Positions 3,973 to 60,023 are shown, counted from the first letter of the stretch. The stretch is DNA of 64,000 bases from an uncultured virus (IMG/VR IMGVR_UViG_3300035138_000088) (IMGVR_UViG_3300035138_000088); one strand, 5' to 3'. Numbers and translations are program-made. Notes: a model not told the origin generated them from the sequence alone.

Positions 3973-4425
3973 ATGGCACACTTTAAAAAAGGTGAAATCA
4001 TAGAGGCTTACATTGGCACAACTGACGGCTTAAACGCTGATGAAATAGTTAATAAAGTTACCAATGGGGAACCGCTTTCAGTATGGAAGAAAGCCAAGGT
4101 AACAAACATAAGCCGCGCCACTGAAAGAAACCTTTACACGGTCCTAGTAGACGGAGAAGAGAAAAGAGTTTTTCCGCGAAACATGCGAAAACTTCCAAAA
4201 TACACAATAAAAGTAGACGTTTATAATCCCTCTGACGTGGACCGAGTAAAAGAAATCTTTAAAACCTTTTTCGGTCATCCTTACACCATAAAAGAAGAAT
4301 CAAAAGAGCGTGAGCACTGTTTCTTAATCATAACGTCAGACTACCGCTTTTTAAGATTCAGTTTCAAGCTTGATAAGTTGGTGTGCGGAATAAGAAACAT
4401 AACTTTTCCAGAGGAGAAACTTTAA
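3973..4425 (+). CDS. hypothetical protein (SH3/KOW-like N-terminus possible)
   Basis: ORF track; AGGGGGAAACTTTG leader. Confidence 0.7.
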   Translation: MAHFKKGEIIEAYIGTTDGLNADEIVNKVTNGEPLSVWKKAKVTNISRATERNLYTVLVDGEEKRVFPRNMRKLPKYTIKVDVYNPSDVDRVKEIFKTFFGHPYTIKEESKEREHCFLIITSDYRFLRFSFKLDKLVCGIRNITFPEEKL

Positions 4426-14988: not shown

Positions 14989-15903
14989 TTACGCTGGGGC
15001 GGATTCTGGCTCGGCTATCTTCACTGTACCAGTATCAGTTATCTCTAAAGGAATATATTTCCTATCGAAAGAACAGATACGGCATGACAATATACGAGTG
15101 AAATGAACAAGGTCCCACTGTTTGATTGTCTTATTCAACGCTGAAGCTATGTCGTTTTTAAGTTTTCCAGAGGCTTTACCGAAATCCATACATATGACGC
15201 TATCGAGATTATGAGCTATGCTTATTCCACCAGCTATGGCGAAACGGTCTGTTTCTTCCTCTGACCTCTGACAAACATAGAGCCCAGTTATGCCGTGTTG
15301 CTGGTTATATCGAGATAGCCACAGGATTCTGTTTTTGATTGCGGCGCGATATGATTCCATTAAAGTTATAGAATCAATCACTAAAAGGTCTATCTGTTCT
15401 GGTGAAGATTCAACTATGCTTTGGTACACTGAAGAGAAGGTTCCCCATTCTCTAAGTTCGGTGAAAGTTACAGCGTCAAGAACGAACATATTAGCCTTGA
15501 TTTTTTCCCAGTCTAGGTTTAAAGCTGAAGCCTTCTCCTTCATCCTTGATTCCAAGTCGTAACGTTTGTTACCGACATTCCAAATATCTTCAGAAATTAC
15601 AAAGATTACTTTCTTGCCTTCGTTGGCTGTGTGTAGAACCACATCTTGTGCTAGTAAAGATTTTCCTACTCCGCTTAAGCCGACTACTCCTAATTGTACA
15701 ACTAGAGGTATGCCGCCTAAAGGTTTATTTTCTGAATTAAGATAGAGTTGGTCCAAAAAGGTGTGAGTTTGTAAGCCTTCTAAAACTTTTGGTTGTGCGT
15801 CAGGTTTTGACATTGGCGCAATAAAGTTAGCGTAATTCTCAATTTTTTCTCCCACTTTATCTGACTCATCTAGAATGTTTTTTATTTGGTCTTCCGTACC
15901 CAT
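14989..15903 (-). CDS. KaiC/RAD55-like RecA-superfamily ATPase (AF_0795-type)
   Basis: 'GGIP', Walker A GLSGVGKS, Walker B LLVIDSIT, 'VCQR', 'AGG..IAH.LD', 'CRIC.FD'. Confidence 0.85.
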   Translation of the reverse strand: MGTEDQIKNILDESDKVGEKIENYANFIAPMSKPDAQPKVLEGLQTHTFLDQLYLNSENKPLGGIPLVVQLGVVGLSGVGKSLLAQDVVLHTANEGKKVIFVISEDIWNVGNKRYDLESRMKEKASALNLDWEKIKANMFVLDAVTFTELREWGTFSSVYQSIVESSPEQIDLLVIDSITLMESYRAAIKNRILWLSRYNQQHGITGLYVCQRSEEETDRFAIAGGISIAHNLDSVICMDFGKASGKLKNDIASALNKTIKQWDLVHFTRILSCRICSFDRKYIPLEITDTGTVKIAEPESAPA

Positions 15904-25100: not shown

Positions 25101-25787
25101 GTGTATTACACTAAACCAGTGACTAATATGCCAATATTTGGACCATGCAAAAATTGCAAAGAGCTTGAAAAACAAAACAAGGAAATAGACAAAAAACGCC
25201 TTGAAGCTCTGGGCGAACTAAATGAGATGTACGAAAAAGAACGCCAATGGAAACTGAGAGAAAAAGCCTACGAAGAAGAGCTTGAGGAAAAGAGAGAGTC
25301 GCTTAGAACTACACGAGAAGAACGAGAACAATTACAGGACAAACTAAGCCACTTTAACGATGGACTAAGAGTTCTCAACGGCGGTATATGCTCTACTTTG
25401 TTCGATGGAACCTATTATTCTAGACTAGAAATGGGACGTTACGGAAATCCAATCATGAAAGTAACTTCAAATCTTCATCTCAGGTCAATAAATATCCCCG
25501 AAATTTTCGTATCTATGGCTGATTCAAGAGACTACCTCTATGAAATAACCATTGCGAAGTTCGACAGTAGCATACTCGATGACATATTCTATAAAGTAAC
25601 AGGGGATTATCCAATGACATTCCAACGACTAGAAAAATGTTTCTGTGTAAAAAGTAAAATCACTATGAAAACATTCTTCGAAAATCTGACTGCGATATTC
25701 CACGAAACACAGCGTCGCTATGAACTGTTGCTTACAAGCCTAGAACCTAAAGATGAAAACAAAGAAGACGCTAAAAAGAAAAAATAA
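25101..25787 (+). CDS. coiled-coil hypothetical protein; last gene of + arm
   Basis: Own TATA 25081; stop abuts the convergent gene. Confidence 0.75.
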   Translation: MYYTKPVTNMPIFGPCKNCKELEKQNKEIDKKRLEALGELNEMYEKERQWKLREKAYEEELEEKRESLRTTREEREQLQDKLSHFNDGLRVLNGGICSTLFDGTYYSRLEMGRYGNPIMKVTSNLHLRSINIPEIFVSMADSRDYLYEITIAKFDSSILDDIFYKVTGDYPMTFQRLEKCFCVKSKITMKTFFENLTAIFHETQRRYELLLTSLEPKDENKEDAKKKK

Positions 25788-26159
25788 CTAAGTTTTCTTT
25801 TCCTTATTTTTTATATTTCGAATATCAGATTCTCTAGCTAGATGCCAAACTTTACTCTTTTTCTTTCGACGGCTAAGATGAAGAATAGTAAATCCAACTT
25901 CCATAAACTTGCCGAAGTCTTGGAGACAATCCTGATTTTCCCACACAAATTTGACACAAAAGTTCTTGTAGCCATTATCTAAAAGAAGATTTACCAACTT
26001 ACCCATCTCTTCTGGGTAATGCCCTTCCATCTGCACATAAGGCGATGGTAAATGTCCACATGAACAAAACGTGTTAAATCCGTTATTTCTAAGTAGCCTA
26101 ACTAAATTCTGTATCGGTTTTTCGATATGAAGGTCATACCAATCTTTCTTTTTACCCAT
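25788..26159 (-). CDS. phage hypothetical protein ('I..LV..L...G..T..SCGH')
   Basis: Recurring phage motif; function unknown. Confidence 0.7.
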   Translation of the reverse strand: MGKKKDWYDLHIEKPIQNLVRLLRNNGFNTFCSCGHLPSPYVQMEGHYPEEMGKLVNLLLDNGYKNFCVKFVWENQDCLQDFGKFMEVGFTILHLSRRKKKSKVWHLARESDIRNIKNKEKKT

Positions 26160-26161
26160 AA

Positions 26162-26323
26162 TTATGCCGCCCAGATGAATAGTAAAGCGAATCCACCAAA
26201 AATAAGCGTGGACCAGCCATGATTAGTAGCTCTGGCTATCTCTGGCATAAAGTAGACTACTGCCCCAGTAGCCACTGCTTTAAAGGCATATTTCAAAACG
26301 CTAAGTTTCTCTGATATAGACAT
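26162..26323 (-). CDS. small membrane protein (MSISEKLS...LLFIWAA)
   Basis: Hand-translated; TATA at ~26352. Confidence 0.55.
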   Translation of the reverse strand: MSISEKLSVLKYAFKAVATGAVVYFMPEIARATNHGWSTLIFGGFALLFIWAA

Positions 26324-26368
26324 CTTAATCATAAGAACTATAGTTTGGGAATTTAATAAAGCTTTCTG

Positions 26369-26440
26369 TTAACAGTTGCCTCTTCGTCTTCCAGTTCTGC
26401 GTCCTCTTCCTTGAGGACCAGTTCCGTCTCTTCTTGGCAT
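26369..26440 (-). CDS. 23-aa Arg/Gly-rich micropeptide MPRRDGTGPQGRGRRTGRRRGNC (DUF5320-like)
   Basis: GGTGA SD and own TATA; matches MPxxDGTGPxGxGxxTGRxxGxC pattern. Confidence 0.7.
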   Translation of the reverse strand: MPRRDGTGPQGRGRRTGRRRGNC

Positions 26441-26484
26441 AAAATCACCATAATAAATATGTGCATATACACATATAAGTTTTA

Positions 26485-26640
26485 TTATTCGCCCCAGTCT
26501 TCGCCGACTATAACTAAAATTTGGACTTCTCCATTTTTCCATTCATGTTCAGCACCACAACCAGAACAAGAAATTACTTCTCCTTCCTGAACGTCAGATG
26601 GAATGTCAAGCTCTTTGTCACATTCTTTGCAATTAGCCAT
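26485..26640 (-). CDS. lysW: LysW-type amino-group carrier protein
   Basis: MANCKECDKELDIPSDVQEGEVISCSGCGAEHEWKNGEVQILVIVGEDWGE*: two CxxC, acidic, terminal EDWGE; GGTGGTGA SD and TATA ~26680. Confidence 0.9.
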   Translation of the reverse strand: MANCKECDKELDIPSDVQEGEVISCSGCGAEHEWKNGEVQILVIVGEDWGE

Positions 26641-26720
26641 GCATATCACCACCGTAGACTTTATATACTACGGAATTTGATATTTAAAGCTTGCGGCTTA
26701 CGTGTAACAAACTAAGATTA

Positions 26721-27038
26721 TTATGTACCAAATAGAACAAGTTTACCGATGGCACTAATATCGGTCCAGAATGATTTAGGATGAGTATTTATGCCATATA
26801 TTAAGCAATCCATCATCATCGCACCTATTGTAACTTTACCACGTTTAAGTCTTATAACAGCATCGAAATGGTCTCCATTTGCAAAAATAGCATATAATAA
26901 TTTCATTAAACCTTTATCATCAGGACTGATTCTAAATCCTGTCCGCCAATCACAAAGTAAAATGGTAGAAGAGGGTTTAGTGAAAACCAAATCTTTTGAT
27001 GTTGGGGTTATATGAACCGTCTTGTCATCAATAAACAA
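26721..27038 (-). CDS. hypothetical protein
   Basis: ORF track. Confidence 0.55.
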   Translation of the reverse strand: MFIDDKTVHITPTSKDLVFTKPSSTILLCDWRTGFRISPDDKGLMKLLYAIFANGDHFDAVIRLKRGKVTIGAMMMDCLIYGINTHPKSFWTDISAIGKLVLFGT

Positions 27039-27085
27039 AGCTATCTCTACATTACAAAGTTTCAGTTCTTGCTCAGTTGGATAAA

Positions 27086-27403
27086 TTATGTTGTACCACC
27101 TGTTTGAGAATCAATAGTTTCCTTTACCGCTTTATCTATGTTGGCTTCTTGCCAAATGATTGGCATAGTGAGACCACCACAACATGTAGACCAACCGTTC
27201 TTTAACCCGTTTTTGAACTCAAGATATTGTGTTCTACCACATTTCGGACACTGAACTATGCAGTCATAACCACGAGCTCTAGCCCAAGCAATTCTTTCCT
27301 CTAATGTTTTTGGGACCTTCGGTGCTTTCTTTGTCTTTTCAAGGAAAGCCGCAACTTTGTCTATTTCTTTCTCATCGAGATTTTGGCTCATTCTGGTATC
27401 CAC
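27086..27403 (-). CDS. zinc-ribbon protein
   Basis: CPKC...CC. Confidence 0.7.
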   Translation of the reverse strand: MDTRMSQNLDEKEIDKVAAFLEKTKKAPKVPKTLEERIAWARARGYDCIVQCPKCGRTQYLEFKNGLKNGWSTCCGGLTMPIIWQEANIDKAVKETIDSQTGGTT

Positions 27404-27873
27404 TCCTCACACGGTTCCCCGTCTCCTCTATCCTCATTATCGCATACCAAATAACCGTCGCCATCTAAACCAAGGTCAGATGGTGGAACGAAAGTGCCGC
27501 CGCATTTGCATTTTACGGGTTTACTTTTTCTGGTCAGAATAGAGTACAATAGAGGATAATGGAGTTTTATTTCCTCTTCGAGAAACGATTTCCATTCGTG
27601 TTTCCTTTCACGAGTAGACCAACCGTTAGTGAGTTGTTCTATCAACTCCTTCTTGAGTTCATCAGCATCTATTATGACCCAAGCCCTATTACTTGGTCCA
27701 TGATAAAAATTATGGTGATGAAACTTTAACATAAGCATCCTAAGCATTTCTTCAAGCTTCGGATTTTTATAAGTTCCTTCTGTCATATCATGCCCTGTCT
27801 CTGCAAGCTTAATAAGCCACCCTAATTCGTTGCCTTTAAGTTGAACTTCTTTTGGAAACTTTCTTTCACTCAT
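27388..27873 (-). CDS. hypothetical protein with C-terminal Zn ribbon
   Basis: GGTGA SD. Confidence 0.7.
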   Translation of the reverse strand: MSERKFPKEVQLKGNELGWLIKLAETGHDMTEGTYKNPKLEEMLRMLMLKFHHHNFYHGPSNRAWVIIDADELKKELIEQLTNGWSTRERKHEWKSFLEEEIKLHYPLLYSILTRKSKPVKCKCGGTFVPPSDLGLDGDGYLVCDNEDRGDGEPCEEWIPE

Positions 27874-32620: not shown

Positions 32621-32992
32621 TTATTCTACTAGAGCATAAATCGAATCATCGCCACACATAAGAGTGCGACCAGTAGCTACAACAAAAATCTTCTTTTCGT
32701 CGAGTAATTTGAAAAGATGCTTTGATAAAGCCGAGCTGGTCGTCATAAATCCTCTTTTCCAGAACTCGTGGTACATGCTTGACTTTCGCATTTCTCTTTT
32801 ATCAAGGATTTCCAGTATAGCCTTGCGAGTCTTTTCATAGATGCTTAAGCCTTTTCCCCAGTCCTTATATTTTATAGAAAAACGGTTAAGAATGTAAACT
32901 GTTTCTGGACTACATTTAGGACAATATTTAGCTAGAAGATTTTCATCGTCTGTTTCGAAACCGCAATTTGGATTGCTACACTGAAACTTCAA
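32621..32992 (-). CDS. Zn-ribbon + winged-helix putative transcription regulator
   Basis: CSNPNC...CPKC then 'ILEIL...ALSKHLFKL.DE.KI'. Confidence 0.6.
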   Translation of the reverse strand: MKFQCSNPNCGFETDDENLLAKYCPKCSPETVYILNRFSIKYKDWGKGLSIYEKTRKAILEILDKREMRKSSMYHEFWKRGFMTTSSALSKHLFKLLDEKKIFVVATGRTLMCGDDSIYALVE

Positions 32993-33540
32993 TATTGCAC
33001 ACCTTCGTCACATACGTCTTCATCTGGAGCTTTGATTGTAACGATTTCATTAACGAAGTCAGCTAATTCCATGAGTTCTTCAGTAGCATGTCGTCCAGTC
33101 ATGACGATATTCATGTCTTGTGGTATATTATTCAAGAATTGCTTTACTTCATCAACGGTAAGTAACTTACAATAAACGGCTAAGTTTATTTCATCGAGAA
33201 TCAATAGGTCTGTTTTGTTGTCAGTGATATACCGCCAAGTTTCTATTAAAGCTTCTAACGCTTTTTCTTTGTCCCTTCGATTAAGACTATTAAGCCCATG
33301 CCAGCCTTTTCTACCGTACTGTTTGACCGTAAGATATTCTTTTATTTTTTCCATGAATTGAGCTTGATATTCTCCAGTATTTGTGTTCCACTTCATTAAT
33401 TGGAGCATAAAGACCTTTTTACCATGACCTATAGCTCTCAATGCCAAACCTAATGCGTTGGTAGTCTTACCAGCACCATCTCCAGTATAAAGATATATTT
33501 TACCCATTATCTTGTCATCTCCAATCTGTTTATCTTCCAT
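32989..33540 (-). CDS. btuR: ATP:cob(I)alamin adenosyltransferase (CobA/BtuR/CobO family)
   Basis: 'IYLYTGDGAGKTTNALGLALRAIGHG', 'Q.MK', 'LLILDEIN', 'MTGRHA..EL...AD.V.EI'; start likely MGKIY 33507. Confidence 0.9.
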   Translation of the reverse strand: MEDKQIGDDKIMGKIYLYTGDGAGKTTNALGLALRAIGHGKKVFMLQLMKWNTNTGEYQAQFMEKIKEYLTVKQYGRKGWHGLNSLNRRDKEKALEALIETWRYITDNKTDLLILDEINLAVYCKLLTVDEVKQFLNNIPQDMNIVMTGRHATEELMELADFVNEIVTIKAPDEDVCDEGVQY

Positions 33541-34633: not shown

Positions 34634-36010
34634 TCACCTATCATTGAGTATTTCCCTCGCTCTCTTTAACAGGTAAGTTCTCCTGTTTAATCTCGGACGT
34701 TCGACTACTTCATCTAGTAGGGTCTTCTGGATTTTCCCTATAAGGGGACCCGCTTCTATTCCTAAGTCCATAATGTCATAGCCGTTAATCCTTAAGTCTT
34801 TAATCCTGAATGGTTGTTTAGCCACTCTTACTTTTAGGAGCTTCACTTCGAATTTCCTTGTATTTTCGAAGGCTGACCTTACAAATGGACTACCGCATGC
34901 GATTATGTCTGCATTTGCATGAACTACAATGTCAGAAACCCAATCTGGATTTTCAAGCTTAGATAGGTAACGCCGAGCTCCTCTCGAAGTCATAGCCTTA
35001 TTGAAATGTACATCCATATGATGTTTGACCATGAATAGTATATACTTTGCTTCCTCATTAGAGAACTTGAATCGTTCGACGATATTCGATGCTATCTCTA
35101 CGCCATCTAAATGATGCTTGGGGAAGTATGGTTTGGAATCGTTAGCTTTACGTTTGCCGCAATCATGAATTAACCCGACGAATCTAAGCAGAGGCTTTGA
35201 GGATGGTATATGTCGAACCGTTTCGAACATATGGTACATAACCGTGTGCTCATGAGGTTTAGGCTGAACTACATGTTTCAATCGCGTAACTTCAGGAAGG
35301 AGTTGTTCCATTAAGCCAGTACCTTCCAAATAAGACAGAGCCCAGTGGGGGTTTTCGATAGCGAAAATCTTGAATAGTTCGTCTTTGATTCGCTCCATAG
35401 GAATCTCTACGATTAGATGAGATAAAGCCTTAGCCGCGTCATAAGTTTCTTTGTTTATTATGAAACCAAGTTTGCATGCGAAGCGACACATTCGAATCAT
35501 CCTTAGAGGGTCCTCTCTGAATCTTTCCTCTGGAACGCCTACTGTTCGAATTATATGATTGTCCAAGTCCCTGTAGCCTCTAAAGGGGTCAATAAGTTTG
35601 ACACCATTCAAAGCCATAGCGTTAACCGTAAAGTCTCTTCGGCTTAGGTCCTTATCTAGGCTATCCTCAAAAGTCACTTCGTCTGGATGTCTCCTGTCCG
35701 AATACTTTCCTTCAGACCTATAAGTTGTAATCTCTATTTTCTCTGGTCCTCTTCCATCATCATCGTCTATTATAATCGTCATAGTTCCAAACTTTTCCCC
35801 AGTAGGAATAGCTGTAAAAGGTGTACTTCGGAATACTTCGGCTACCTGATTTGGTCTAGCATTTGTTGCTATGTCAACGTCGCTGATTGGACGGTTAAGA
35901 AGCGAATCTCTAACTGCACCACCGACTATATAGGCTTCATAGCCAGCCTTGGTAAGTATGTTGCACAAACCAAAAGCTTTAATGAGTTTCAACATTTTGT
36001 GGTTCTCCAT
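34634..36010 (-). CDS. cca: class II tRNA nucleotidyltransferase (CCA-adding-like) with HD domain
   Basis: 'VGGAVRD.LL....DVDIAT', 'EITTYR', 'DL.RRDFTVNAMA', 'EDPLRMIR..RF', 'ERI..EL', 'HDCGK'. Confidence 0.9.
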   Translation of the reverse strand: MENHKMLKLIKAFGLCNILTKAGYEAYIVGGAVRDSLLNRPISDVDIATNARPNQVAEVFRSTPFTAIPTGEKFGTMTIIIDDDDGRGPEKIEITTYRSEGKYSDRRHPDEVTFEDSLDKDLSRRDFTVNAMALNGVKLIDPFRGYRDLDNHIIRTVGVPEERFREDPLRMIRMCRFACKLGFIINKETYDAAKALSHLIVEIPMERIKDELFKIFAIENPHWALSYLEGTGLMEQLLPEVTRLKHVVQPKPHEHTVMYHMFETVRHIPSSKPLLRFVGLIHDCGKRKANDSKPYFPKHHLDGVEIASNIVERFKFSNEEAKYILFMVKHHMDVHFNKAMTSRGARRYLSKLENPDWVSDIVVHANADIIACGSPFVRSAFENTRKFEVKLLKVRVAKQPFRIKDLRINGYDIMDLGIEAGPLIGKIQKTLLDEVVERPRLNRRTYLLKRAREILNDR

Positions 36011-36153: not shown

Positions 36154-36468
36154 CTATACGTTCTCTATTATTACTAAATGGGGCTTTCCATCATCGTCAA
36201 CCGTAGCCATATATGCCACGTTTTTTGTCGTATAAAGAGTAATAATTCTCATATGATTACTACCAAAAAACTTCTCCAAGATGGATTTTTCAGACTTCTC
36301 GACTTTTCTTACTCCAAATAAACCATCCAAGAGTTCTTTAAGTAAATCAATACATACATTATCTAAGTTCCACGCATCAACGAAGTCCCTTAAAGATGAA
36401 ACTTTCTTCTCTAATTCTCGTAATCTTTTCAATTCCAATTCTAAAGCCATTTCTTCTGCTGAAATCAT
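36154..36468 (-). CDS. hypothetical protein
   Basis: ATGA overlap with ligase. Confidence 0.65.
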   Translation of the reverse strand: MISAEEMALELELKRLRELEKKVSSLRDFVDAWNLDNVCIDLLKELLDGLFGVRKVEKSEKSILEKFFGSNHMRIITLYTTKNVAYMATVDDDGKPHLVIIENV

Positions 36469-37418
36469 TCCCCTTTCTCCTTGTCCTTGTCGGATTGAAG
36501 TCCCATGCTTAATCCTACTGCAAATTCAGTGGGGTTATCTTCCTCTTTTCTAGCTAAGTATTCTTGCCAGTAAGTGAATAACTTCTTAGATGGAGATGAA
36601 TAAAGATGTTTCTTGGCTTCCTTGCCGACATAAGCGGCTACTAAAGGCATGTCGTGGGCGGGGTCCCCAGTTAGTCCTTCGTCGGCATCAACTTTGGCTA
36701 TAGCACCGTAGACTTCGCTATCTGGCATAGATGGATACTCTGGATTACCCCTGTCTTTCTTTATCCTCTCTGGCTTAGGAATGTCAACTTTCACCTTAGC
36801 TTGAATGAGCCCACAGCCGTACTCTTTGTAATAACCGCGTATTTGTTCGGGAACTTTGTAGGCTTTAATAACCATACCTTCGAGACTGTTCGCTTTGCAG
36901 TATTTTAATGCTTCGTCAGCCATAGCCATTAGGCTTTTTTCTGACCTATGGCGAGTCTCAGCCCATAACTTCACTACTGGGATTCCATAATGGAAGGCTT
37001 GTTGATGAACAAGCACATAAGGAAGGAACTTGTCAGCGGCTTTGTCAAATATGTCAAAGATTACCAGCATATCGCGCTCATAGGTTTCCGCTCTTGTGAC
37101 GCTTAATCCTTTTCGACAAGCTTCGACATAAACCAGAAATTGAGGATTATCATTCAAAAGTTGTAAAACTTTGGGATATTCGTCAGTCCTTTTGACTAGA
37201 GCTTGCAAGTCTGAAGCGGCTTCCTCATTGTTTCGGCTATTGATGAGAATAAATTGTCTTTTCATGATAGAGTTTTCTACACTCTTCAATTGAATACCTA
37301 TATTTGAACCGTCTTTCTTCTCGGTCCAGAATAGACGTTGACCTAGCAAAATCCTCTTTGTTGGTTTCATTGAGGAAAGGATTGGTATGTGCGGGTATCG
37401 TTTGAATTCATCATCCAT
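36465..37418 (-). CDS. ATP-dependent RNA ligase (Rnl2-like)
   Basis: Motif I EKKDGSN, SRN, 'VE', 'FDI', 'EGMV', 'AKVK'. Confidence 0.75.
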   Translation of the reverse strand: MDDEFKRYPHIPILSSMKPTKRILLGQRLFWTEKKDGSNIGIQLKSVENSIMKRQFILINSRNNEEAASDLQALVKRTDEYPKVLQLLNDNPQFLVYVEACRKGLSVTRAETYERDMLVIFDIFDKAADKFLPYVLVHQQAFHYGIPVVKLWAETRHRSEKSLMAMADEALKYCKANSLEGMVIKAYKVPEQIRGYYKEYGCGLIQAKVKVDIPKPERIKKDRGNPEYPSMPDSEVYGAIAKVDADEGLTGDPAHDMPLVAAYVGKEAKKHLYSSPSKKLFTYWQEYLARKEEDNPTEFAVGLSMGLQSDKDKEKGE

Positions 37419-38306: not shown

Positions 38307-40064
38307 CTAATCGGGACAGGTTGGGCATTTACCTTCGGCTTTCTCTAATAGCTGGAACTTTCTGCTTCCATCCCTATAAACAGTTATTCCTTTACATCTA
38401 AGCTGGTAAGCCATAAAGTAGATATTTTCTATGTCGCCTATTTCTGCATTATTAGGGAGATTCACGGTTTTGCTTACTGCATTATCAGTGTGTTTCTGGA
38501 ATGCCGCTTGCATTTTAATGTGCCACTCGGGAGACACTTGAGATGAAGTAACGCAAAACTTTTGTACTTCACTGGGGAGCTTTATGCAACGCATAGAACC
38601 GCTTGATGCTATAGCGTCTTCTAATTGTTTGGTCCAGAGTCCCTTCAATTCTAAGCTTCTTTTTACTGAAGGATTTATTTCAATTAAGTCCTTCCCGAGA
38701 GTATCGCTGACGTTTCTCTTCTGTAATATTTCAAAGATTGGTTCGATGCTTTGTGAGCAGTTCGCAATCAAGCTGATTGTACCTGTAGGAGCTATAGTTG
38801 TTATAGTAGCGTTTCTTAAGTATGGCGGGTCAATAACTGAATTTTTAGTGCAATAAATACTCTTCTCGAAATTAGGGAAGTTTCCTTTTTGTTTTCCCAA
38901 CTCTTGGGACATCTGGAATCCTACATCGTGAATGTATTTCATTATAGCTTCAGCTAGGTCTACTGCTTCTTGACTATCATATCTTATTCCCATCTGCACA
39001 AGTAAGTCAGCCCAGCCCATAACTCCTAATCCAATCTTGCGATTCTCAAACGTTGCATGCTGGATTTCGGGTAGAGGAAGCTTGTTAACATCTATGACAT
39101 TATCTAGGAACCTCACCGCTAATCTCACTGTTTTCTTCAGTTTTTCCCAATCAATATGTGCGCCTTTCTTCGTATAGAATGCGGAAAGATTTATTGAGCC
39201 GAGATTGCAAGACTCGTAAGGCAATAATGGCATTTCACCACAAGGATTTGTTGATTCTAGTTGTCCTATTTTTGGTGTAGGGTTATCTTTATTTATTCTA
39301 TCAATAAATATGACTGCGGGTTCTCCGTTCTTCCAACTCATGAAGCATAAGAGATTCCAAATAACACGAGCTTTTAGTGTCTTTACAACTTTGTTAGTTC
39401 GGGGATTTATTAAGTCGAAATCATCGTCTCTCCTCACAGCACTCATAAATTTATCGGTTATTGCTACGGAAAGATTAAAGTTTTTGAATACTCCCTCTTT
39501 CTCTTTAGAAATTATGAAGTCTTGAATGTCTGGATGGTCCACACGGATGATACCCATGTTAGCTCCACGACGTTTACCGCCTTGTTTTATGACTTCCGTA
39601 GCCATGTCAAAGACGCGCATAAAAGATAATGGTCCACTGGCTATTCCACCAGTAGATTTCACAACGTCGCCTTTAGGTCTAATTCTGCTGAATGAGAATC
39701 CTGTTCCACCACCAGTCTTATGAATTTTTGCTGTATAATGAACTGCCTCAAAAATCTTGTCTATATCGTCGTCAACTGGGAGAACGAAACAAGCAGACAA
39801 TTGACCTATATCTGTTCCAGCATTCATTAGTGTAGGAGAATTCGGTAGGAATTCAAACTTAGTCATCATAGCGTAAAATTGTCGCTCTAACGCCCTGACA
39901 TCTTTTTTCTCCATTCCATACTTGAGTTCGACTTGCGCTATAGCCTTAGCGACGCGCCGAAACATTTTACTTGGGGTCTCAATAAGCTCCCTATTCTCGT
40001 CTTTAAGCAGATACCTTTGAGACAAAATATACTGTGCATTTTTACTAATCCTCATGTAAATCAA
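38307..40064 (-). CDS. nrdJ: class II (adenosylcobalamin-dependent) ribonucleotide reductase
   Basis: 'FLPNSPTLMNAG', 'QLSACFV', 'RRGANM', 'TNPCGE', 'CNLGS', 'APTGTIS', 'KGITVYRDGS', C-terminal CPTC; no beta subunit seen. Confidence 0.9.
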   Translation of the reverse strand: MIYMRISKNAQYILSQRYLLKDENRELIETPSKMFRRVAKAIAQVELKYGMEKKDVRALERQFYAMMTKFEFLPNSPTLMNAGTDIGQLSACFVLPVDDDIDKIFEAVHYTAKIHKTGGGTGFSFSRIRPKGDVVKSTGGIASGPLSFMRVFDMATEVIKQGGKRRGANMGIIRVDHPDIQDFIISKEKEGVFKNFNLSVAITDKFMSAVRRDDDFDLINPRTNKVVKTLKARVIWNLLCFMSWKNGEPAVIFIDRINKDNPTPKIGQLESTNPCGEMPLLPYESCNLGSINLSAFYTKKGAHIDWEKLKKTVRLAVRFLDNVIDVNKLPLPEIQHATFENRKIGLGVMGWADLLVQMGIRYDSQEAVDLAEAIMKYIHDVGFQMSQELGKQKGNFPNFEKSIYCTKNSVIDPPYLRNATITTIAPTGTISLIANCSQSIEPIFEILQKRNVSDTLGKDLIEINPSVKRSLELKGLWTKQLEDAIASSGSMRCIKLPSEVQKFCVTSSQVSPEWHIKMQAAFQKHTDNAVSKTVNLPNNAEIGDIENIYFMAYQLRCKGITVYRDGSRKFQLLEKAEGKCPTCPD

Positions 40065-40305: not shown

Positions 40306-40694
40306 TAGTACAACCTACAAACCCTACAATCTGGACATAAAATTGGAAATCCGCCACTACCGTATGGTTCAAGCTTCTCTTTTGGAATATCTTCTCTCCC
40401 ACAATCATCACACACATCACGACATCGGCGACATAAAAGCTCCTTGCCGACTTTCTTCAGAAAATCATGTCTGCCACATCGGGTACAATGACCAAGGGTT
40501 TCGTCATCTCTTGCACCATGTCGTCCGCGTTCCCATTCCTTGTCAGCTAACTCATTGATTAAAGCGTTTCGAACTCCTTCTCCGAATTTACCATTGTAAA
40601 TTTCCATGATAATTTTTAAACCGAGCTTTTTTATGGCTTTTTTGTAAATTTTATCCCCAAATGGTTTCTCAAGTTTTTTCTTTTCATCTAACAT
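40305..40694 (-). CDS. multi-zinc-finger protein
   Basis: CTRC, CRRC, CDDC, CPDC. Confidence 0.7.
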   Translation of the reverse strand: MLDEKKKLEKPFGDKIYKKAIKKLGLKIIMEIYNGKFGEGVRNALINELADKEWERGRHGARDDETLGHCTRCGRHDFLKKVGKELLCRRCRDVCDDCGREDIPKEKLEPYGSGGFPILCPDCRVCRLY

Positions 40695-41142
40695 TTATAT
40701 CACATACTATGAATCTTTCGTCGAGATATTTCGCAAGAATTGGCTCTACGTCTTTCCACTCAAGCTTGCCGTTTCCACATCCCACTTTTGGTAAATACAA
40801 TGGGAGAGGTATTCCGCTTAAGTTGTATTCGAAAATCCTCAATAAGTCCTTGCAAGTATCCTCAATCAACTTGGGGTCAGCATCTTCCCACCAATTATGT
40901 TTAACTGGAAAAGTAATAATACCGTACTTATGGAAAGTGAAAACTACGTTGCCGTATTCCTTGATTCTGTCACCAAGCTCTTTAGGTAAGTCTTCCCACT
41001 TCTGTTTAGCTTGTAACGCAAGACCAGCCCCCATAGTACATTCGCCTTTCTTGTTGACGAATCCATTAGTGGGAATAACAATCCAATATCCTTTTTTATG
41101 CATATCCCACAGGTTGCCAGTTATTTCTCGCGTCTCTATCAC
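40684..41142 (-). CDS. macro domain (ADP-ribose processing) protein
   Basis: 'GNLW', 'IPTN', 'MGAGLA', 'FPVK..W', 'LPKVGCGNGKL.W..V'. Confidence 0.85.
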   Translation of the reverse strand: MIETREITGNLWDMHKKGYWIVIPTNGFVNKKGECTMGAGLALQAKQKWEDLPKELGDRIKEYGNVVFTFHKYGIITFPVKHNWWEDADPKLIEDTCKDLLRIFEYNLSGIPLPLYLPKVGCGNGKLEWKDVEPILAKYLDERFIVCDINVR

Positions 41143-50999: not shown

Positions 51000-51770
51000 C
51001 TAATATTTGAACTTTATATGACCATTTACGTTACCATGTGCATCTCTGGTTACCATCCAAGGTTTATCTTTGTCAATCTCTGCATAATGACCTATCCCAT
51101 TTATGTCGCCATCGAGCCACACGTCATATCCAGCATGATGAGCTCTAATACAATAACTGAAGTCTTCTGATGCCTTCAATTTTTCTGTCCATATTACAGG
51201 ATGGAAATTCACTCGTTTATCTTGAATTATTCGTCTACTCAAGCATATGCATCCAGCAGAAGTAACGTAGACTTTTTGTAGTCCTTTACATTTAGATTTA
51301 AACCAAAGTTTATCTTTGCCTTTTCGTTTCCATTTTGAAGCCAAAAACGTTCCTTCTGGGTAACGCCTTAAATATGGAGCTCCTATTACATCTTTGTGTC
51401 TTCGCGTAATCTGGGTTACGAAGTCTGGTGGATAAATTACTATATCATCATCTATGAATATCGCATAGTTAGGATTTAGTTTTCTTGCATACTCAAGTAA
51501 AACCTGTCTGGCTATGCCGATTCCTTCGTATGGATTTCCAGCCTTTTCTATTAGGTCCTCTTTAAACCATAATCGAATCAGTTTTTTGGGACCTTTAAAG
51601 TCTTGGATAACTTGTAACGTATCATCCGTACTGTTATTTTCCAAGAAAACATATAGGTCTGGCTGTGGGTAAAGCTCAATAAGTTTTCCCAAGCAATCTC
51701 GAAGGAAAGTAGCGTTATTATATGTCGGAATTAAGAATATTACTTTGTTTTTTGTTTCCATTTTTTCCAT
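51000..51770 (-). CDS. GT-A (family 2) glycosyltransferase
   Basis: 'IPTYN', 'ENNSTDDT', 'FIDDD', 'SEDF..C'. Confidence 0.85.
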   Translation of the reverse strand: MEKMETKNKVIFLIPTYNNATFLRDCLGKLIELYPQPDLYVFLENNSTDDTLQVIQDFKGPKKLIRLWFKEDLIEKAGNPYEGIGIARQVLLEYARKLNPNYAIFIDDDIVIYPPDFVTQITRRHKDVIGAPYLRRYPEGTFLASKWKRKGKDKLWFKSKCKGLQKVYVTSAGCICLSRRIIQDKRVNFHPVIWTEKLKASEDFSYCIRAHHAGYDVWLDGDINGIGHYAEIDKDKPWMVTRDAHGNVNGHIKFKY

Positions 51771-54603: not shown

Positions 54604-55695
54604 TTATTTTACTCCAATGTTATCCTTTATGATACCAAAGTCCAAACTAGCTCTAAGCCGCATGGTTGCAAGTTTGACCTCATATTCTTTTATGAGCTCA
54701 CTAGGATTATCGTCTATCTTTCTAATTAAGCTTTCTATGACGCTTGCCATTAGCGGGTCATTAACTTCAACGTTGTATTCTGAGAGTCCAAGCTTATCCA
54801 TAAGCATTGTATTCTTGTCAACAGTTGAAATTGAAATCGTTGGAATCTTCAAAGCTATTGGTATAACTTGTGAATGACCACGCATTCCTATAACCATCTT
54901 AGCGTAACTGTAATAATTTAATCCGTTTTTCAACATTTTATTCCAATCTAGAATTTGTACCATTTCAGGATTCCAATCAACGTAATTGAAGCACATACCA
55001 TCTGAAGGAACATGTTTTGCAAAAAAAACCTTTATTCCAATTCCAGTTAAAAAGTCAACTATATGCTTTATTTTAGCACAAAATTGTTCTGGTGGAACTT
55101 TGTTATTAGTGTATCTATGAATTATTCCGTCTCCAGATATGTTTAATATTGCATAGTCCCCTTTTATAAGCCTACTGGTTTCATCGCGTTTAACCCAATA
55201 AGCTGGGTCTGGACTTTCTCTTGGATTAAATCCAATTTCTTCAAGTTTTTCTTTTGTTCCATCAGCTCTAACACTGAAGAACCTTGAGTTTTTACGTATC
55301 TCAATTAAATTGGCTAATTGACACCGATAATCCATCTTAGCTAGGTTTGTAGAGCGGGGAGCATTATACCCTATTCCATATACAACATAAGGTACTTTCA
55401 GTTTTTTGTACCAAGATACTGGCTTAAACCACCATAAAGGAGAAGCATCCCCAAGCCAACCACCGCCGCCAATAAAGATTAAATCATAATCATCTGGATT
55501 GATTCTTTTTAATATTTCTTCAAAGGTCAAGTCTCTCTTTGGAGCATCATTATCGTAAGCCATAGTGTCTTTATCATGTATATTCTCTACTGGAATATGG
55601 AACATTTCAGCCATGATGTTTTTTGCACCCATAGCAAGCAATTTATCACCATAATTACATGTACCATATCCTAAATGGAAGTGAAATATCTTCAT
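54604..55695 (-). CDS. polysaccharide pyruvyl transferase family protein
   Basis: 'NYGD', 'IGGGG', 'GIG', 'SVR', 'PDPA', 'MRGHS'. Confidence 0.85.
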   Translation of the reverse strand: MKIFHFHLGYGTCNYGDKLLAMGAKNIMAEMFHIPVENIHDKDTMAYDNDAPKRDLTFEEILKRINPDDYDLIFIGGGGWLGDASPLWWFKPVSWYKKLKVPYVVYGIGYNAPRSTNLAKMDYRCQLANLIEIRKNSRFFSVRADGTKEKLEEIGFNPRESPDPAYWVKRDETSRLIKGDYAILNISGDGIIHRYTNNKVPPEQFCAKIKHIVDFLTGIGIKVFFAKHVPSDGMCFNYVDWNPEMVQILDWNKMLKNGLNYYSYAKMVIGMRGHSQVIPIALKIPTISISTVDKNTMLMDKLGLSEYNVEVNDPLMASVIESLIRKIDDNPSELIKEYEVKLATMRLRASLDFGIIKDNIGVK

Positions 55696-56138
55696 ATTTT
55701 TAATTTCAGCTCCAACTTCTTTCTGGGTCTATCGGTAAATTCGTTTGTTACTATAAATCCGAATCTCTCATATAAGGTTATCGCTTTCTCATTGTCCGCG
55801 TAAGTTGAAAGGTGAATTTCATTACAACCCATATTTTTGGCATATTTGATTAATTCGCACATTAACTTTGTTCCATATCCTCTGCCGACAACAGCCGATA
55901 CTATACCAAGTCTACATGTATGTTCTGTAAAGTTATAAAGATGACCAAACGCTACTATTGTATAGCCTTCTATAAGTGCAAGCTTAATTGAGCTAAAATC
56001 AGACAAGATTCCATTTACTATTTTGGTATCAAACTTTCTTCCGTAATAATGCCATAAATCTAAGGCTTTAGGAGTTAGCCATTGAAGGAAATCCAGTAAT
56101 AATCTTTCATCTTCTACCGTTAAAACTTTAATGTACAT
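55692..56138 (-). CDS. GNAT acetyltransferase
   Basis: 'GRGYGTKLM', 'N.KAI.LYERFGF'. Confidence 0.85.
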   Translation of the reverse strand: MYIKVLTVEDERLLLDFLQWLTPKALDLWHYYGRKFDTKIVNGILSDFSSIKLALIEGYTIVAFGHLYNFTEHTCRLGIVSAVVGRGYGTKLMCELIKYAKNMGCNEIHLSTYADNEKAITLYERFGFIVTNEFTDRPRKKLELKLKI

Positions 56139-56736
56139 CTTTGTTTTCTTCCTTTAAAGAAAATTCCCAGTATTTAAAGAACGTCGCCATAGCTGAAAAA
56201 TAACGATTAGAAGCTGAAGGTTTAATTGCCGTAATTAAAACTCCATCTCCCCAAAAAGCATAATTCGCTACCTTTTCGGTTACAAGCTTCTTGAGTTCGA
56301 CTATGTGGTAACCGTTTCTAAAGAATTTTTCTATACAAGCCTTAAATAGCGCAAGTGAATGAACCTCTAAAACATACTCATTTACCATAGAAAATATTTT
56401 ATCTGGAACAGTAAAGAGATGCCGTTCTCCACCGTCAAGGTCGCATTTTATCACGTCTGGCTTATCTTCTAAGATTATCTTAGAGATTTCGTTTGGAGTT
56501 TTTATGAATAGAAAAATTGGTTTCATATTCTTGAGCCATGCTGAGTTCTCAAGCAGTTTCTCGTAGCGTTCTTTGTTACCTTCTACAGCTATCACCTGAA
56601 TAGCTCCCTTCTCTAAGAAGAATTCAGCCGAACTTCCGTAATCTGCACCCAAATCTAGTACTTTCTTTCCAGCATAATCTATCAAACCATATTCCTTAGA
56701 GTAATCTTCGTCTCCAATAAACGGTTTTAATCTCAT
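56128..56736 (-). CDS. FkbM-like SAM-dependent methyltransferase
   Basis: 'VLDLGADYG', 'AVEG', 'IKCDLDGGE', 'EVH'. Confidence 0.8.
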   Translation of the reverse strand: MRLKPFIGDEDYSKEYGLIDYAGKKVLDLGADYGSSAEFFLEKGAIQVIAVEGNKERYEKLLENSAWLKNMKPIFLFIKTPNEISKIILEDKPDVIKCDLDGGERHLFTVPDKIFSMVNEYVLEVHSLALFKACIEKFFRNGYHIVELKKLVTEKVANYAFWGDGVLITAIKPSASNRYFSAMATFFKYWEFSLKEENKDVH

Positions 56737-57755
56737 AATAAAGCAACTCCATTGTCTCTTCTCACGGTCTTTTTGAATGTTTTCAGATTCTCATAACCTA
56801 TGTATGGAACATAATAATAGTCTGCATACCATAAGGCTATAAATTTCTTTGGTATTGTAGGATATGATTTAACACCATCAAGCCAGTTATCTATTAGGAT
56901 TTCTGGGCTATTCACTCCACCCATAGCGCGTACTATTTGAGCCCCAGTAAATCTTGCATTGAACTCAAAAATCTTGATTTCTCCACCAGAACGGAATCCT
57001 TGAACTGATAAGGGACCTACAACGCCAAGTTTGCCAACTATTTTAGCTATCATGAGTTTAAAATCCAAGTCATCTGTTTCTCCGCCATGAATTGTTTTGT
57101 AACTCATACCAAACTTTTTGACTGATTCGGCGCATGTGATTGAAAGTATTTCACCGTCCTTGGCTACTGTAGCCATCGCAGATAATTCTGTCCCATCGAG
57201 CTTTTCTTGAATTATATTTTCGAATCCATGCTCCTTGGAATATTGAATCATATTTTGGAGTTGGAACTGATTTGAACAATCAAAAACCATTCTGCTTCCA
57301 AACCCGCCACGCGGCTTAGTTATGACTGGGAAAGGATTAACATATTTTACATCGCTACCTTTCCATGTTTTCGGATAAGGAAACTTGTTTTCCCTGAGCC
57401 AGTTAGCCAATGCAAATTTGTCCCGTGCCAATTTTAAAACATTGTCTGGCGGCAAAAGGATTTCAGCATCAACCTCATTTTTTCGGAATGAAAGAATTTC
57501 GAGTGGAATATCATGAGCCACTATTATTAAGTCAATATCTTCTTTGGCTACTATTTTGTTTATATCGTCAATCCATTCGCTTACTTCTTTTCTAATCAAA
57601 TAGCCTCTATCTCCGACATATGCTCCTATAAGTAATGGGTCTATGTCAGACGTGATTATGTTATACTTTTGCTTTTTGATATTAGCTAGTCTTAAACATT
57701 TTATGGTTGATAAAGATGCTTGACCAGAACTTCCAACTATCAAAATATTTCTCAT
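56733..57755 (-). CDS. ATP-grasp ligase (CPSase-like, glycan-cluster type)
   Basis: 'DKF', 'P.PKT', 'FP...KPR.G.GS', 'QE.L.G.E', 'FEFNARF.G'. Confidence 0.85.
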   Translation of the reverse strand: MRNILIVGSSGQASLSTIKCLRLANIKKQKYNIITSDIDPLLIGAYVGDRGYLIRKEVSEWIDDINKIVAKEDIDLIIVAHDIPLEILSFRKNEVDAEILLPPDNVLKLARDKFALANWLRENKFPYPKTWKGSDVKYVNPFPVITKPRGGFGSRMVFDCSNQFQLQNMIQYSKEHGFENIIQEKLDGTELSAMATVAKDGEILSITCAESVKKFGMSYKTIHGGETDDLDFKLMIAKIVGKLGVVGPLSVQGFRSGGEIKIFEFNARFTGAQIVRAMGGVNSPEILIDNWLDGVKSYPTIPKKFIALWYADYYYVPYIGYENLKTFKKTVRRDNGVALL

Positions 57756-57756
57756 T

Positions 57757-58989
57757 TTATCCTACCTCTACATATTCCCCATCATCAACTGGTTTTACAA
57801 TATGAGTTCCTTTAACATGTTTTAATTCAAACTTTTTGAGACAGTGTGAACAAGTTACCACATTACAAAATTCCTTTTCAAAATCAGATTTAAGTTCAGT
57901 TATTTTTCTTTTACTCATTTCAAATAAGAAATCGTCTACTGATGTGGAATGACTTTTTATACTATAAAGTTGAAAGAGTTGTAAAGTATTCTTTCGTCGT
58001 CTACCCTGTTTATTATATTGTCTTATAGCTTCCAAACAAGCTTCATGATAGGCTTCTCTGGATATTTCTGGAGACCAAAGCTTCAAAGCAGTTTTTCTAG
58101 CTTCTTTACCCATTTCTTTAGCTAAATCATGGTCTTCAAGTAAGTTGTTAACATAATTAATCATTTCTGTTGGATTGGTGCTTTTAAATCCATTAACGCC
58201 ATGCTCTATTATTCTATCCATCTCCCAGCTTGCATAAACAACTGGTGGCATACCACTCATCATTGCTTCTATTAATCCATCCGTTAAGATTGTTCCAGTA
58301 GCACATTCCAAGTAACATCTATTTAGCTTGTATGCTACAATCATCTCTTCGAATGTAGTAATAGGGGTTCCGAGCCTAAAATCCAATCCATATCTTTTTG
58401 AGTGCGTAAAAGGATGAATTTTATCCCAAATAAATCCGCCGCGTTCCATGTATCTTGCATCATTCTGATTAGGAATACCTATTCGTTCACATGTCCACAT
58501 AGCTTTCTTTACTTCTCCAGTCCAGCCATTATAGATTTCTGGGTCTTGACTCCACGCAATTTTCCCTTTCATTCCATAAAATTCTTTTTGACTTTCGGCT
58601 GAGTAAATACATGGATAATCTCCTATAAGTTTGCTACCATGTTTAGCTAACAGTTCTTTAACTACAGTGTTACATAAGTGGAATTTCCAAACTATAGGTA
58701 TGTCTTGAAGGTATTTTTCCCATACTTCAATTTGTCCAGCGTCTGGAATTAAAATAGCAACGTCGTAATCATCAACATCAATTTCCTTCATACTTTCCCC
58801 GAGCAATTTAACGTTAACTGGCTTTGGTTTTATACATCTTAACCATCTCCAATAGCCATTTGATATTGATAAATCACCTTTAGGTTCTCTTCCGATAATC
58901 CTATTCGTAACATAAAACGTATCATTTGGCATTGATGAAGCCAGTCCAAACATCCAACCGTAATGTGGAATACAAGTTAAAATTTTCAT
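57757..58989 (-). CDS. GT-B (family 4) glycosyltransferase
   Basis: 'LIEAMMSGMP.V', 'I.HG.NG', 'MG..AR'. Confidence 0.8.
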   Translation of the reverse strand: MKILTCIPHYGWMFGLASSMPNDTFYVTNRIIGREPKGDLSISNGYWRWLRCIKPKPVNVKLLGESMKEIDVDDYDVAILIPDAGQIEVWEKYLQDIPIVWKFHLCNTVVKELLAKHGSKLIGDYPCIYSAESQKEFYGMKGKIAWSQDPEIYNGWTGEVKKAMWTCERIGIPNQNDARYMERGGFIWDKIHPFTHSKRYGLDFRLGTPITTFEEMIVAYKLNRCYLECATGTILTDGLIEAMMSGMPPVVYASWEMDRIIEHGVNGFKSTNPTEMINYVNNLLEDHDLAKEMGKEARKTALKLWSPEISREAYHEACLEAIRQYNKQGRRRKNTLQLFQLYSIKSHSTSVDDFLFEMSKRKITELKSDFEKEFCNVVTCSHCLKKFELKHVKGTHIVKPVDDGEYVEVG

Positions 58990-60023
58990 TTTATTGACTC
59001 CACCATTTCTTTGAATTGTAAGCCAGATGTAATCCAATTAAACTTGTCCGCGTAAGCTCTAGCATTATTTTCTTGTTCTTTCCGCAACTTTTCATCGTTA
59101 ATATATTTACATAAAGTTTTCTTGAATTCTTTTCTATTTGTCATAACTATGGCTTTATGTTTTGCATATTCTGGGAAACATTCTAAATTTGAAGTTATAA
59201 CAGTTTTGCCGTGTCCAAGCATATAAGCCAATGATGATTCGCCGATTTTATGCCAATACGTGACCACTCCTAAATCAGCCGCCGACATCCATACGTCTGT
59301 TTCTTCATCGGAAATTAATGGACGAGAAAAGTGTACTCTGGAACTCATACCAAATGTGCTGGCATAATCCAACAAATATTGCTGGGACTCATGAGAGCAC
59401 GGCGTTCCACAAAACAAGGCTTCAGTTCCGTACATTCCAGAAATCCATTTCAACAAGTCGTCATGTCCTTTGGATTTACCATAATAGCCCCATGCTATAA
59501 CCGAATTTGGAAGTCTTTGACCTACAGTTTTTCTGCACTCGGCTTTGTTAAGTTCTACGCCTTGAGTACAAGGAAATCTCCATACTGTCATTTTATCATG
59601 ATATTTCTTTCCACTTTTGCCGAGTGCATTAATCCATTTTTGTCTGTAAAAATCCTGAGATAAAGTAACAAACTCAGAATTCTTTAATATTGTATGTTTT
59701 TGTTCTTCAGTTCTAGGTTCTTCGTTCCAGTTGACACAAAAAATGATTTTCTTTGTTGGGTCAGAAAACACGCTTTCTAGGTCTCTATGAAAAATATAGT
59801 CCCAATAAGATAGGATAATCTTGTTGCTTCGTGCCATCTCTAACCCAAGACGAATCTCATTCTCATTATATTTCTGTCTAATATCGTAAAGGTTGACGAA
59901 ATCAACGTCTAACCCCACAGCTTCTAATCCTTGAATGAAGTTTTTTGGTGGTGGATAGCCCTGAAGTAAACAACCATTCTCGTGGGGAATCCAGTAGCCC
60001 ATAACAGTTACGGTTTCACCCAT
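58986..60023 (-). CDS. GT-B (family 4) glycosyltransferase
   Basis: 'WGY....KG.D.L', 'MSAAD', 'GK.VITS'. Confidence 0.75.
   Translation of the reverse strand: MGETVTVMGYWIPHENGCLLQGYPPPKNFIQGLEAVGLDVDFVNLYDIRQKYNENEIRLGLEMARSNKIILSYWDYIFHRDLESVFSDPTKKIIFCVNWNEEPRTEEQKHTILKNSEFVTLSQDFYRQKWINALGKSGKKYHDKMTVWRFPCTQGVELNKAECRKTVGQRLPNSVIAWGYYGKSKGHDDLLKWISGMYGTEALFCGTPCSHESQQYLLDYASTFGMSSRVHFSRPLISDEETDVWMSAADLGVVTYWHKIGESSLAYMLGHGKTVITSNLECFPEYAKHKAIVMTNRKEFKKTLCKYINDEKLRKEQENNARAYADKFNWITSGLQFKEMVESIK

Follow-up and report, generated by a model that had tools for sequence, protein, structure and literature searches.

LysW is a small carrier protein that cells use in the synthesis of lysine and arginine, with every pathway intermediate covalently attached to one LysW molecule, and solved LysX/LysZ/LysY systems exist. 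Carrier-type auxiliary metabolic genes are encoded by cyanophages (ferredoxin and plastocyanin), as is CP12, a small virus-encoded protein that redirects host carbon flux. To our knowledge, little has been learnt about auxiliary metabolic genes in archaeal viruses, and almost all of the described ones encode enzymes. Bathyarchaeia are an abundant group in sediments, and their viruses are only beginning to be described.

The accessible part of PMC10433800 gives the features of LysW/ArgW proteins as zinc-binding cysteines (three or four) and an EDWGE tail, whose terminal Glu carries the substrate. According to the same part of that source, the tail is recognised by LysX/ArgX through a GSWGR motif and LysW proteins are always loaded by ATP-grasp ligases. 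For viral LysW, a single figure-legend label and no study was found in the literature, nor was any described function for a viral amino-group carrier. The label is an abbreviation in the legend to Figure 3 of 10.1101/2025.02.15.638363 and belongs to the drawn genome of a tailed virus, either nanohaloarchaeal or haloarchaeal. As far as the accessible part of that source goes, virus DNTV-1 carries a ribonucleotide reductase (RNR), an RNA ligase, glycosyltransferases and two ATP-grasp ORFs without known substrate, and no discussion of the LysW gene or its orphan status was found there; the likeness to the locus described below is that a large tailed virus of archaea has a gene annotated as a LysW homologue. 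Neither lysine nor LysW occurs in the main text of PMC10541130 (a paper on Bathyarchaeia viruses) or of PMC13465236 (a 2026 catalogue of archaeal viruses).

The window analysed here is a stretch of 64,000 nucleotides (64 kb) from an uncultured virus (IMG/VR IMGVR_UViG_3300035138_000088); it belongs to a 95,601-bp contig, of which ~31.6 kb lies outside the window. The features discussed are as follows.

26485..26640, minus strand: LysW-family carrier gene (ORF translation; ATG at 26640, TAA stop at 26487-26485)
26645..26653, minus strand: Shine-Dalgarno-like GGTGGTGAT at -13..-5, 4 nt upstream of the LysW ATG
26660..26688, minus strand: TATA-box-like A/T-rich octamers, a possible archaeal promoter (sequence motif)
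34634-36010 and 36465-37418, minus strand: CCA-adding enzyme and RNA ligase (family matches)
56733-57755, minus strand: ATP-grasp protein, the sole one in the window, of the PRK12767 carbamoyl-phosphate-synthase-like/PylC-like type

The LysW ORF comprises 51 codons and a TAA stop, and translation of the window gives the product MANCKECDKELDIPSDVQEGEVISCSGCGAEHEWKNGEVQILVIVGEDWGE. Its zinc-binding cysteines, C4/C7 and C25/C28, form two CxxC pairs and are invariant in homologue alignments of 16, 17 and 60 sequences. The C-terminus reads VGEDWGE immediately before the TAA, which gives a GEDWGE end with Glu51 as the terminal residue. The protein is acidic (13 D+E versus 3 K+R, pI 4.09, net charge about -10). 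An earlier note, made from the sequence alone, had described a 51-residue acidic zinc ribbon ending in EDWGE, and translation, charge and family profiles all agree with that description.

Profile HMMs, sequence matches to solved structures and the predicted fold together make the assignment of this protein to the LysW carrier family, also proposed in that note, a firm one. The NCBIfam model NF041070 (carrier_LysW_Arch) matched end to end (E 1.6e-13, 50.4 bits, curated cut-off 75), Pfam PF21344 (Zn_ribbon_LysW) scored 30.5 bits (gathering score 27) and TIGR01206 scored 10.6 (cut-off 53.2). The score on NF041070 is no argument against membership, because a bona fide, operon-borne LysW of Bathyarchaeia also falls under the 75-bit cut-off (63.8). 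The best sequence matches among PDB structures were the LysW chains 3vpb_E, 5k2m_E and 3wwl_A. An AF2 model built on 60 homologues reached a mean pLDDT of 88.6, with the tail less confident, and LysW chains occupied Foldseek PDB ranks 1-6 throughout (prob 0.99-1.00, TMq 0.57-0.76), at E-values of 2.6e-3 to 0.15 for what is a very small protein. The nearest ESM-Atlas clusters were likewise LysW clusters, and a weak alternative zinc-ribbon match was to Lar restriction alleviation (E 0.026).

Compared with the LysW/ArgW proteins of Thermus thermophilus, Sulfolobus and Thermococcus kodakarensis (3wwl, 3vpb chain E, 5k2m chains E/F), the window protein is alike in size, in its four-Cys zinc ribbon, in its acidic surface and in the flexible EDWGE tail with the reactive Glu. 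However, it is virus-encoded, has no LysX/ArgX, LysZ, LysY, LysJ or LysK within 64 kb, and is just 32-41% identical to the solved proteins over the aligned parts.

The GGTGA core of the Shine-Dalgarno-like element was also found 9-14 nt upstream of several further genes in the window, so the LysW signal fits the local translation signals and the strong ribosome-binding site claimed earlier is upheld. The accompanying claim of an own promoter goes no further than plausible. Two octamers are present upstream of the gene, TATATAAA at 26660-26667 (-27) and TTTAAATA at 26681-26688 (-48), but the window has 20 copies of TTTAWATA where shuffles lead one to expect 17.1, which is no enrichment. The octamers are weak promoter evidence because of this lack of enrichment, and an own promoter for LysW is plausible. 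No RNA run was among the listed sequencing runs that match the region.

The gene lies close to the end of a block of minus-strand genes, amid small zinc-finger ORFans and near the convergence point of two transcription blocks. Its GC content (0.40) and GC3 (0.27) are similar to those of its neighbours, the polymerase, RNR and portal genes and the window generally, and because its base composition matches that of the virus, LysW is not a newly inserted gene. Over 25700-27500 the window shows 0 differences from a 17.5-kb contig that was assembled separately from a wetland metagenome run. As this run is probably the source sample, the agreement speaks for a consistent assembly and not for an independent occurrence; a second sequencing run covers 26935-27205 only.

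Downstream of LysW, with its start 45 nt beyond the LysW stop, lies a 23-codon ORF, MPRRDGTGPQGRGRRTGRRRGNC (window 26369-26440, minus strand), which has its own GGTGA at -9. Its product matches positions 1-23 of Pfam DUF5320 with 31 bits (gathering score 27), and by this match it is a stand-alone version of the N-terminal motif of DUF5320, a family without assigned function. It is possibly co-transcribed with LysW.

The minus-strand block runs from 64 kb down to 25.8 kb, whilst the plus-strand block (0-25.8 kb) consists almost entirely of ORFans; across the window, 55 of 77 ORFs had no Pfam match. Encoded in the minus-strand block are a portal protein (phrog_9232, E 1.4e-7) and an SSB-like OB-fold protein. 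The same block also encodes an archaeal-type family B polymerase (PolB; NF004417, 887 bits, over the cut-off) and a protein of 643 aa whose full-length identity to proteins of the Synechococcus phages S-CBWM1 and S-CRM01 is 30%. Pfam and NCBIfam scans found no cellular housekeeping genes in the window and ARAGORN found no tRNA genes. The window yielded no identifiable major capsid protein or terminase; for a 345-aa ORF beside the portal, a candidate for the capsid module, a single-sequence AF2 model had a pLDDT of 42 and was unusable, and no relatives of the portal protein were found in IMG/VR. The portal, the PolB, the phage-shared 643-aa gene and the ORFan-rich flanks on both sides bear out the viral context, and nowhere within the 64 kb is there the lys operon of a cellular contig. 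On this gene content, the source looks like a large tailed archaeal virus.

Several other genes of the window merit description. A class II (adenosylcobalamin-dependent) RNR is encoded at 38307-40064 (minus) and a cob(I)yrinic acid a,c-diamide adenosyltransferase (CobA) at 32989-33540 (minus), and the virus may itself provide its RNR with activated B12 cofactor. Adjoining the RNA ligase is a CCA-adding enzyme of class II, the bacterial/eukaryotic type (PolyA_pol head domain), with an HD domain, encoded alongside an archaeal-type polymerase in the same virus; the ligase and the CCA-adding enzyme look like a tRNA-repair module. A 152-aa macrodomain-like protein (40684-41142, minus) gave matches to phrog_335 and to the model of the DarG antitoxin ADP-ribosyl glycohydrolase (E 4e-13); it is a candidate for an enzyme that counters ADP-ribosylating defence systems. 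Also present are a pyrimidine-dimer DNA glycosylase (468-842, minus; PF03013, E 1e-11) and a KaiC/RadB-like ATPase (14989-15903, minus; TIGR03878, E 3e-30). Lastly, a ten-gene glycan cluster occupies 54604-63718 (minus) and encodes an Anp1-like glycosyltransferase, a PseC/LegC-like aminotransferase, a LegB-like 4,6-dehydratase, an ORF without family match, two GT1 glycosyltransferases, the ATP-grasp protein, an FkbM/FtsJ-like methyltransferase, a PseH-like GNAT and a polysaccharide pyruvyl transferase. Together with a GT2 at 51000-51770, this cluster suggests elaborate amino-sugar modification.

Both the polymerase and the carrier point to a host lineage. The closest cellular matches of the PolB are from Bathyarchaeia (mostly 45-48% identical), followed by Heimdallarchaeota at about 40%. 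Two short contigs with a 62%-identical PolB sit in a MAG labelled Stahlbacteria, where they probably represent a mis-binned virus; no LysW was found in that MAG. Of 301 Bathyarchaeia-class genomes, 151 had a match to the window LysW at E<=1e-3, the best being 64% and 66% identical. The cellular matches of LysW and PolB thus agree in their indication, and the virus probably infects Bathyarchaeia. No LysW match was obtained for the other 150 of the 301 sampled genomes and the family is absent from four of five Bathyarchaeia chromosome records, so the actual host may lack the pathway.

At all 12 of the best Bathyarchaeia loci, LysW is situated directly 5' of a RimK/LysX-like ligase of 390-405 aa (one copy is cut by a contig end). 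This ligase matches TIGR00768 (E 3e-25) and TIGR02144 (E 1e-23), both under cut-off, and across the loci concerned (L048, L050-L061) its matches to RimK/LysX models range from E 1e-21 to 3e-25, all under cut-offs, which marks it as a divergent LysX-like enzyme. It extends ~110 residues further at the C-terminus than the models, which span 276-281 positions. LysZ/ArgB and LysK, both over cut-offs, were found ~5 kb or less from LysW and on the same strand in all five of the closest genomes tested. Given the neighbouring ligase and LysZ/LysK, the nearest cellular homologues of the viral protein are ordinary pathway genes. The LysW proteins of these loci are its closest cellular relatives (54-66% identical), with equal spacing of the ribbon cysteines and the same GEDWGE end. 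However, the window protein has 4-5 fewer residues linking its ribbon to its tail and, whereas the Bathyarchaeia LysW abuts its ligase at 12/12 loci, the viral gene is solitary and falls in a clade of short-type proteins.

A HMMER search of the window protein (P0001) against 1.84 billion cluster representatives returned 112 matches at E<=1e-3; a word-indexed protein search with P0001 returned only itself. The closest homologue (P0002) is a protein of 51 aa, 65% identical over its full length, which is found on 8 contigs of other assemblies (up to 25.6 kb long) and has the tail YDWGE rather than EDWGE. By these sequence comparisons the window LysW is a real, maintained gene. In a quick tree (56 columns, SH-aLRT 82-89, weakly supported), P0001 and P0002 fall in a 17-member short-type clade of metagenomic proteins, beside and not within the Bathyarchaeia clade. 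The tails in this clade have E, Y, F, I, L, V, C or D at the first position, followed by D-[W/Y/F]-G-E. A profile of the clade matched 265 of 401 Thermoproteota genomes and, at E<=1e-10, 7 of 201 Asgard genomes; the best matches throughout these 602 genomes were longer cellular forms, and no match was found in four Heimdallarchaeota genomes and one Marsarchaeota genome. A host-derived origin finds expression in the 64-66% identity to the pathway LysW of Bathyarchaeia, yet the weakly supported tree places the window protein in the neighbouring clade. A metagenome scan with another homologue (P0005) gave two 176-aa zinc-ribbon loci, which were discarded as spurious.

Among 70 LysW-like metagenomic homologues, seven end in Gln, as EDWGQ or EDFGQ (P0006, P0013, P0030, P0032, P0042, P0046 and P0083). 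A terminal Gln offers no gamma-carboxyl for loading, and these proteins may be natural non-loadable variants or may need deamidation.

LysW was also surveyed in viral databases. A tblastn search of P0001 against 50,697 phage and archaeal-virus GenBank records found no LysW, and P0001 and P0002, back-translated and searched against IMG/VR, returned nothing but the unrelated zinc ribbons L001-L003. IMG/VR was also scanned with back-translated EDWGE followed by each of the three stop codons, which yielded 63 stretches (23 + 26 + 14). Five of these are small CxxC...CxxC proteins ending in EDWGE (L063, L075, L079, L121 and L141), so that the survey added five LysW-like genes from IMG/VR and none from GenBank phage records. 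The patterns G-x-DWGE-TAA (20 stretches) and GEDWGE-TRA (2 stretches) gave no LysW-like protein in IMG/VR. Since these scans see exact EDWGE or GxDWGE ends only, the viral LysW count is a lower bound. L075 and L079 score over the cut-off of the bacterial-type TIGR01206, and L063 is LysW-like but under the cut-off.

Phage genes lie beside the five, among them those for an HNH endonuclease, a DNA methyltransferase, a phrog_624 DNA-binding protein and a polymerase exonuclease. In these five records, which CheckV rates as 12-72% complete, there was neither a RimK-family nor an ATP-grasp_3 gene. All five resemble the window LysW in small size, CxxC...CxxC arrangement, EDWGE directly before the stop, phage neighbours and the lack of a ligase gene in the record, whereas they belong to different lineages and none is closely related to it. 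The LysW-like gene of L141 (54 aa, 4001-4165, minus) lies in a record of 100,978 bp with a GC content of 0.38. A large terminase subunit is encoded 1.5 kb away and the PolB of this record is only distantly related to that of the window (29% identity); by eye the LysW-like protein looks archaeal-type, and L141 would be a second large virus with an orphan LysW. By these sequences an orphan viral LysW is rare but recurrent in several unrelated lineages.

The earlier note had stated that no lysXYZJK genes lie in the window, and within the 64 kb this holds. An NCBIfam scan of the 49 ORFs of >=124 aa found no LysX, LysY, LysZ, LysJ or LysK, and tblastn with a LysX-like protein from Bathyarchaeia as query found no match better than E 4.6 in any of the window's six frames; a ligase gene could lie in the ~31.6 kb of the contig outside the window. 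That note had also raised, as a speculation, that LysW might serve the ATP-grasp protein at 56733, which our results do not support. The best PDB relative of this enzyme is 2pn1, which is not of the RimK/LysX type, and a motif resembling the tail-recognising GSWGR is absent from it. It is encoded 30 kb from LysW, in a different module among amino-sugar genes, and has 74%-identical relatives on other long contigs, one of 78 kb. A complex prediction of LysW with this enzyme scored 0.02, a value that says nothing for or against their pairing. Moreover, with an ATP-grasp_3 protein in 0/5 of the other LysW-bearing viral records, we find nothing here in favour of such a partnership.

What the viral protein does must be judged from these observations together. 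The reading that we prefer, to which we give about an even chance as a whole, is that of a host-derived, functional LysW carrier that is loaded and processed by host enzymes and sustains lysine/arginine synthesis during infection. This is the simplest reading because the carrier features are intact, the viral records lack a ligase and the cellular relatives belong to complete pathways. A decoy that instead binds, or is loaded by, host LysX/ArgX but is a poor substrate for the downstream enzymes, so that it ties up the pathway enzymes and shuts down lysine/arginine synthesis, saving ATP, NADPH and glutamate/2-oxoglutarate for nucleotides, is unlikely, if still worth serious attention: it would account for a LysW orphaned in the window from all pathway enzymes, for the shortened linker relative to host-lineage LysW and for membership of a separate short-type clade with relaxed xD[W/Y/F]GE tails, and it would suit a virus that invests in dNTP supply through a class II RNR and a corrinoid adenosyltransferase, with cyanophage CP12 as a precedent for small viral proteins that redirect host carbon flux. 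However, a pure blocker needs no reactive Glu, and the four cysteines, the EDWGE and the terminal Glu are all intact; the window protein does not end in Gln, as seven of the 70 metagenomic homologues do. A broader proposal joins two ideas, that theft of the carrier alone is a recurrent viral strategy, with an orphan LysW kept in at least four unrelated virus lineages (the window virus with P0002, L141, L075/L121/L079 and L063), and that the short-type clade could be a carrier family borne by viruses or otherwise unrecognised, with a ligase or target particular to it; we hold this combination tentatively, as true in perhaps one case of four.

The remaining explanations are less probable again. 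Loading by a viral ligase, either the ATP-grasp protein at 56733-57755 or a gene elsewhere in the viral genome, for example for an amino compound of a virion glycan, starts from the rule in the accessible part of PMC10433800 that ATP-grasp ligases always load LysW and from the one such enzyme in the window, which sits in an amino-sugar cluster with a PseC/LegC-like aminotransferase, a LegB-like dehydratase and a PseH-like GNAT. Both LysW (65%) and the ATP-grasp protein (74%) have close relatives in other assemblies, and the nanohaloarchaeal virus DNTV-1 combines a LysW label with two ATP-grasp ORFs in the accessible part of 10.1101/2025.02.15.638363. Set against this are the PRK12767/PylC-like type of the enzyme, its closest structure 2pn1, its lack of a GSWGR-like motif, its distance of 30 kb in a different module and the absence of ATP-grasp_3 and RimK-family genes from all five other LysW-bearing viral records, and we consider this explanation distinctly improbable. 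Slightly less credible still is the reuse of an acidic zinc ribbon as a nucleic-acid mimic, an anti-defence protein or a partner of a viral protein, with the tail as a relic. A net charge of about -10 in 51 aa, the position among many small zinc-finger ORFans near the convergence of the transcription blocks and weak alternative zinc-ribbon matches such as Lar restriction alleviation (E 0.026) would suit it; a relic, however, is expected to decay, whereas P0001, P0002 and the clade as a whole have retained the DWGE tail with its terminal Glu. Five unrelated viral LysW-like genes also carry the exact EDWGE-stop, although they were found by searching for EDWGE-stop. Least probable by some way is an artefact, in which cellular DNA was joined in error to a viral contig, or the window does not come from a virus. 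The missing capsid protein and terminase and the capsid-candidate model with a pLDDT of 42 leave room for it, but the second assembly is identical across both flanks, the composition of LysW matches that of the window, virus-type genes lie on both sides with no cellular housekeeping genes found in the window, and the neighbours share the same type of Shine-Dalgarno signal.

Under the preferred reading of a host-loaded carrier, the virus, most likely infecting Bathyarchaeia, would have acquired lysW long ago from a lysW-lysX-...-lysZ-...-lysK operon of its host lineage, and would have kept the carrier and not the pathway enzymes. The viral LysW would be made during infection from its own ribosome-binding site, and a host ligase of the RimK-family LysX/ArgX type would attach glutamate or alpha-aminoadipate to the gamma-carboxyl of Glu51. 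Host LysZ, LysY, LysJ and LysK would then process the intermediates and release the product. In this way the stoichiometric pool of carrier would be enlarged or maintained, and lysine and/or ornithine/arginine synthesis would continue for virion production. Because each intermediate occupies one LysW, additional carrier could increase or keep up the flow towards lysine and/or ornithine/arginine as host expression fails; that host enzymes load the protein, and which way flux then shifts, is our inference. By analogy with cyanophage ferredoxin, plastocyanin and CP12, the virus would supply a cheap, stoichiometric and non-enzymatic part of a host pathway, whereas the cyanophage proteins act in photosynthetic electron transport and carbon flux.

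Taken together, these data place a known protein family in an unusual viral setting, from which the proposed function is a reasonable reading. If true, a viral amino-group carrier would represent a different form of metabolic takeover, in which a virus supplies, or jams, the scaffold on which its host makes lysine and arginine, and it would tie a ~95-kb wetland virus to Bathyarchaeia. Moreover, if the orphan carriers of unrelated viruses are all loaded by their hosts, LysW would offer viruses a general means of controlling the supply of amino acids.
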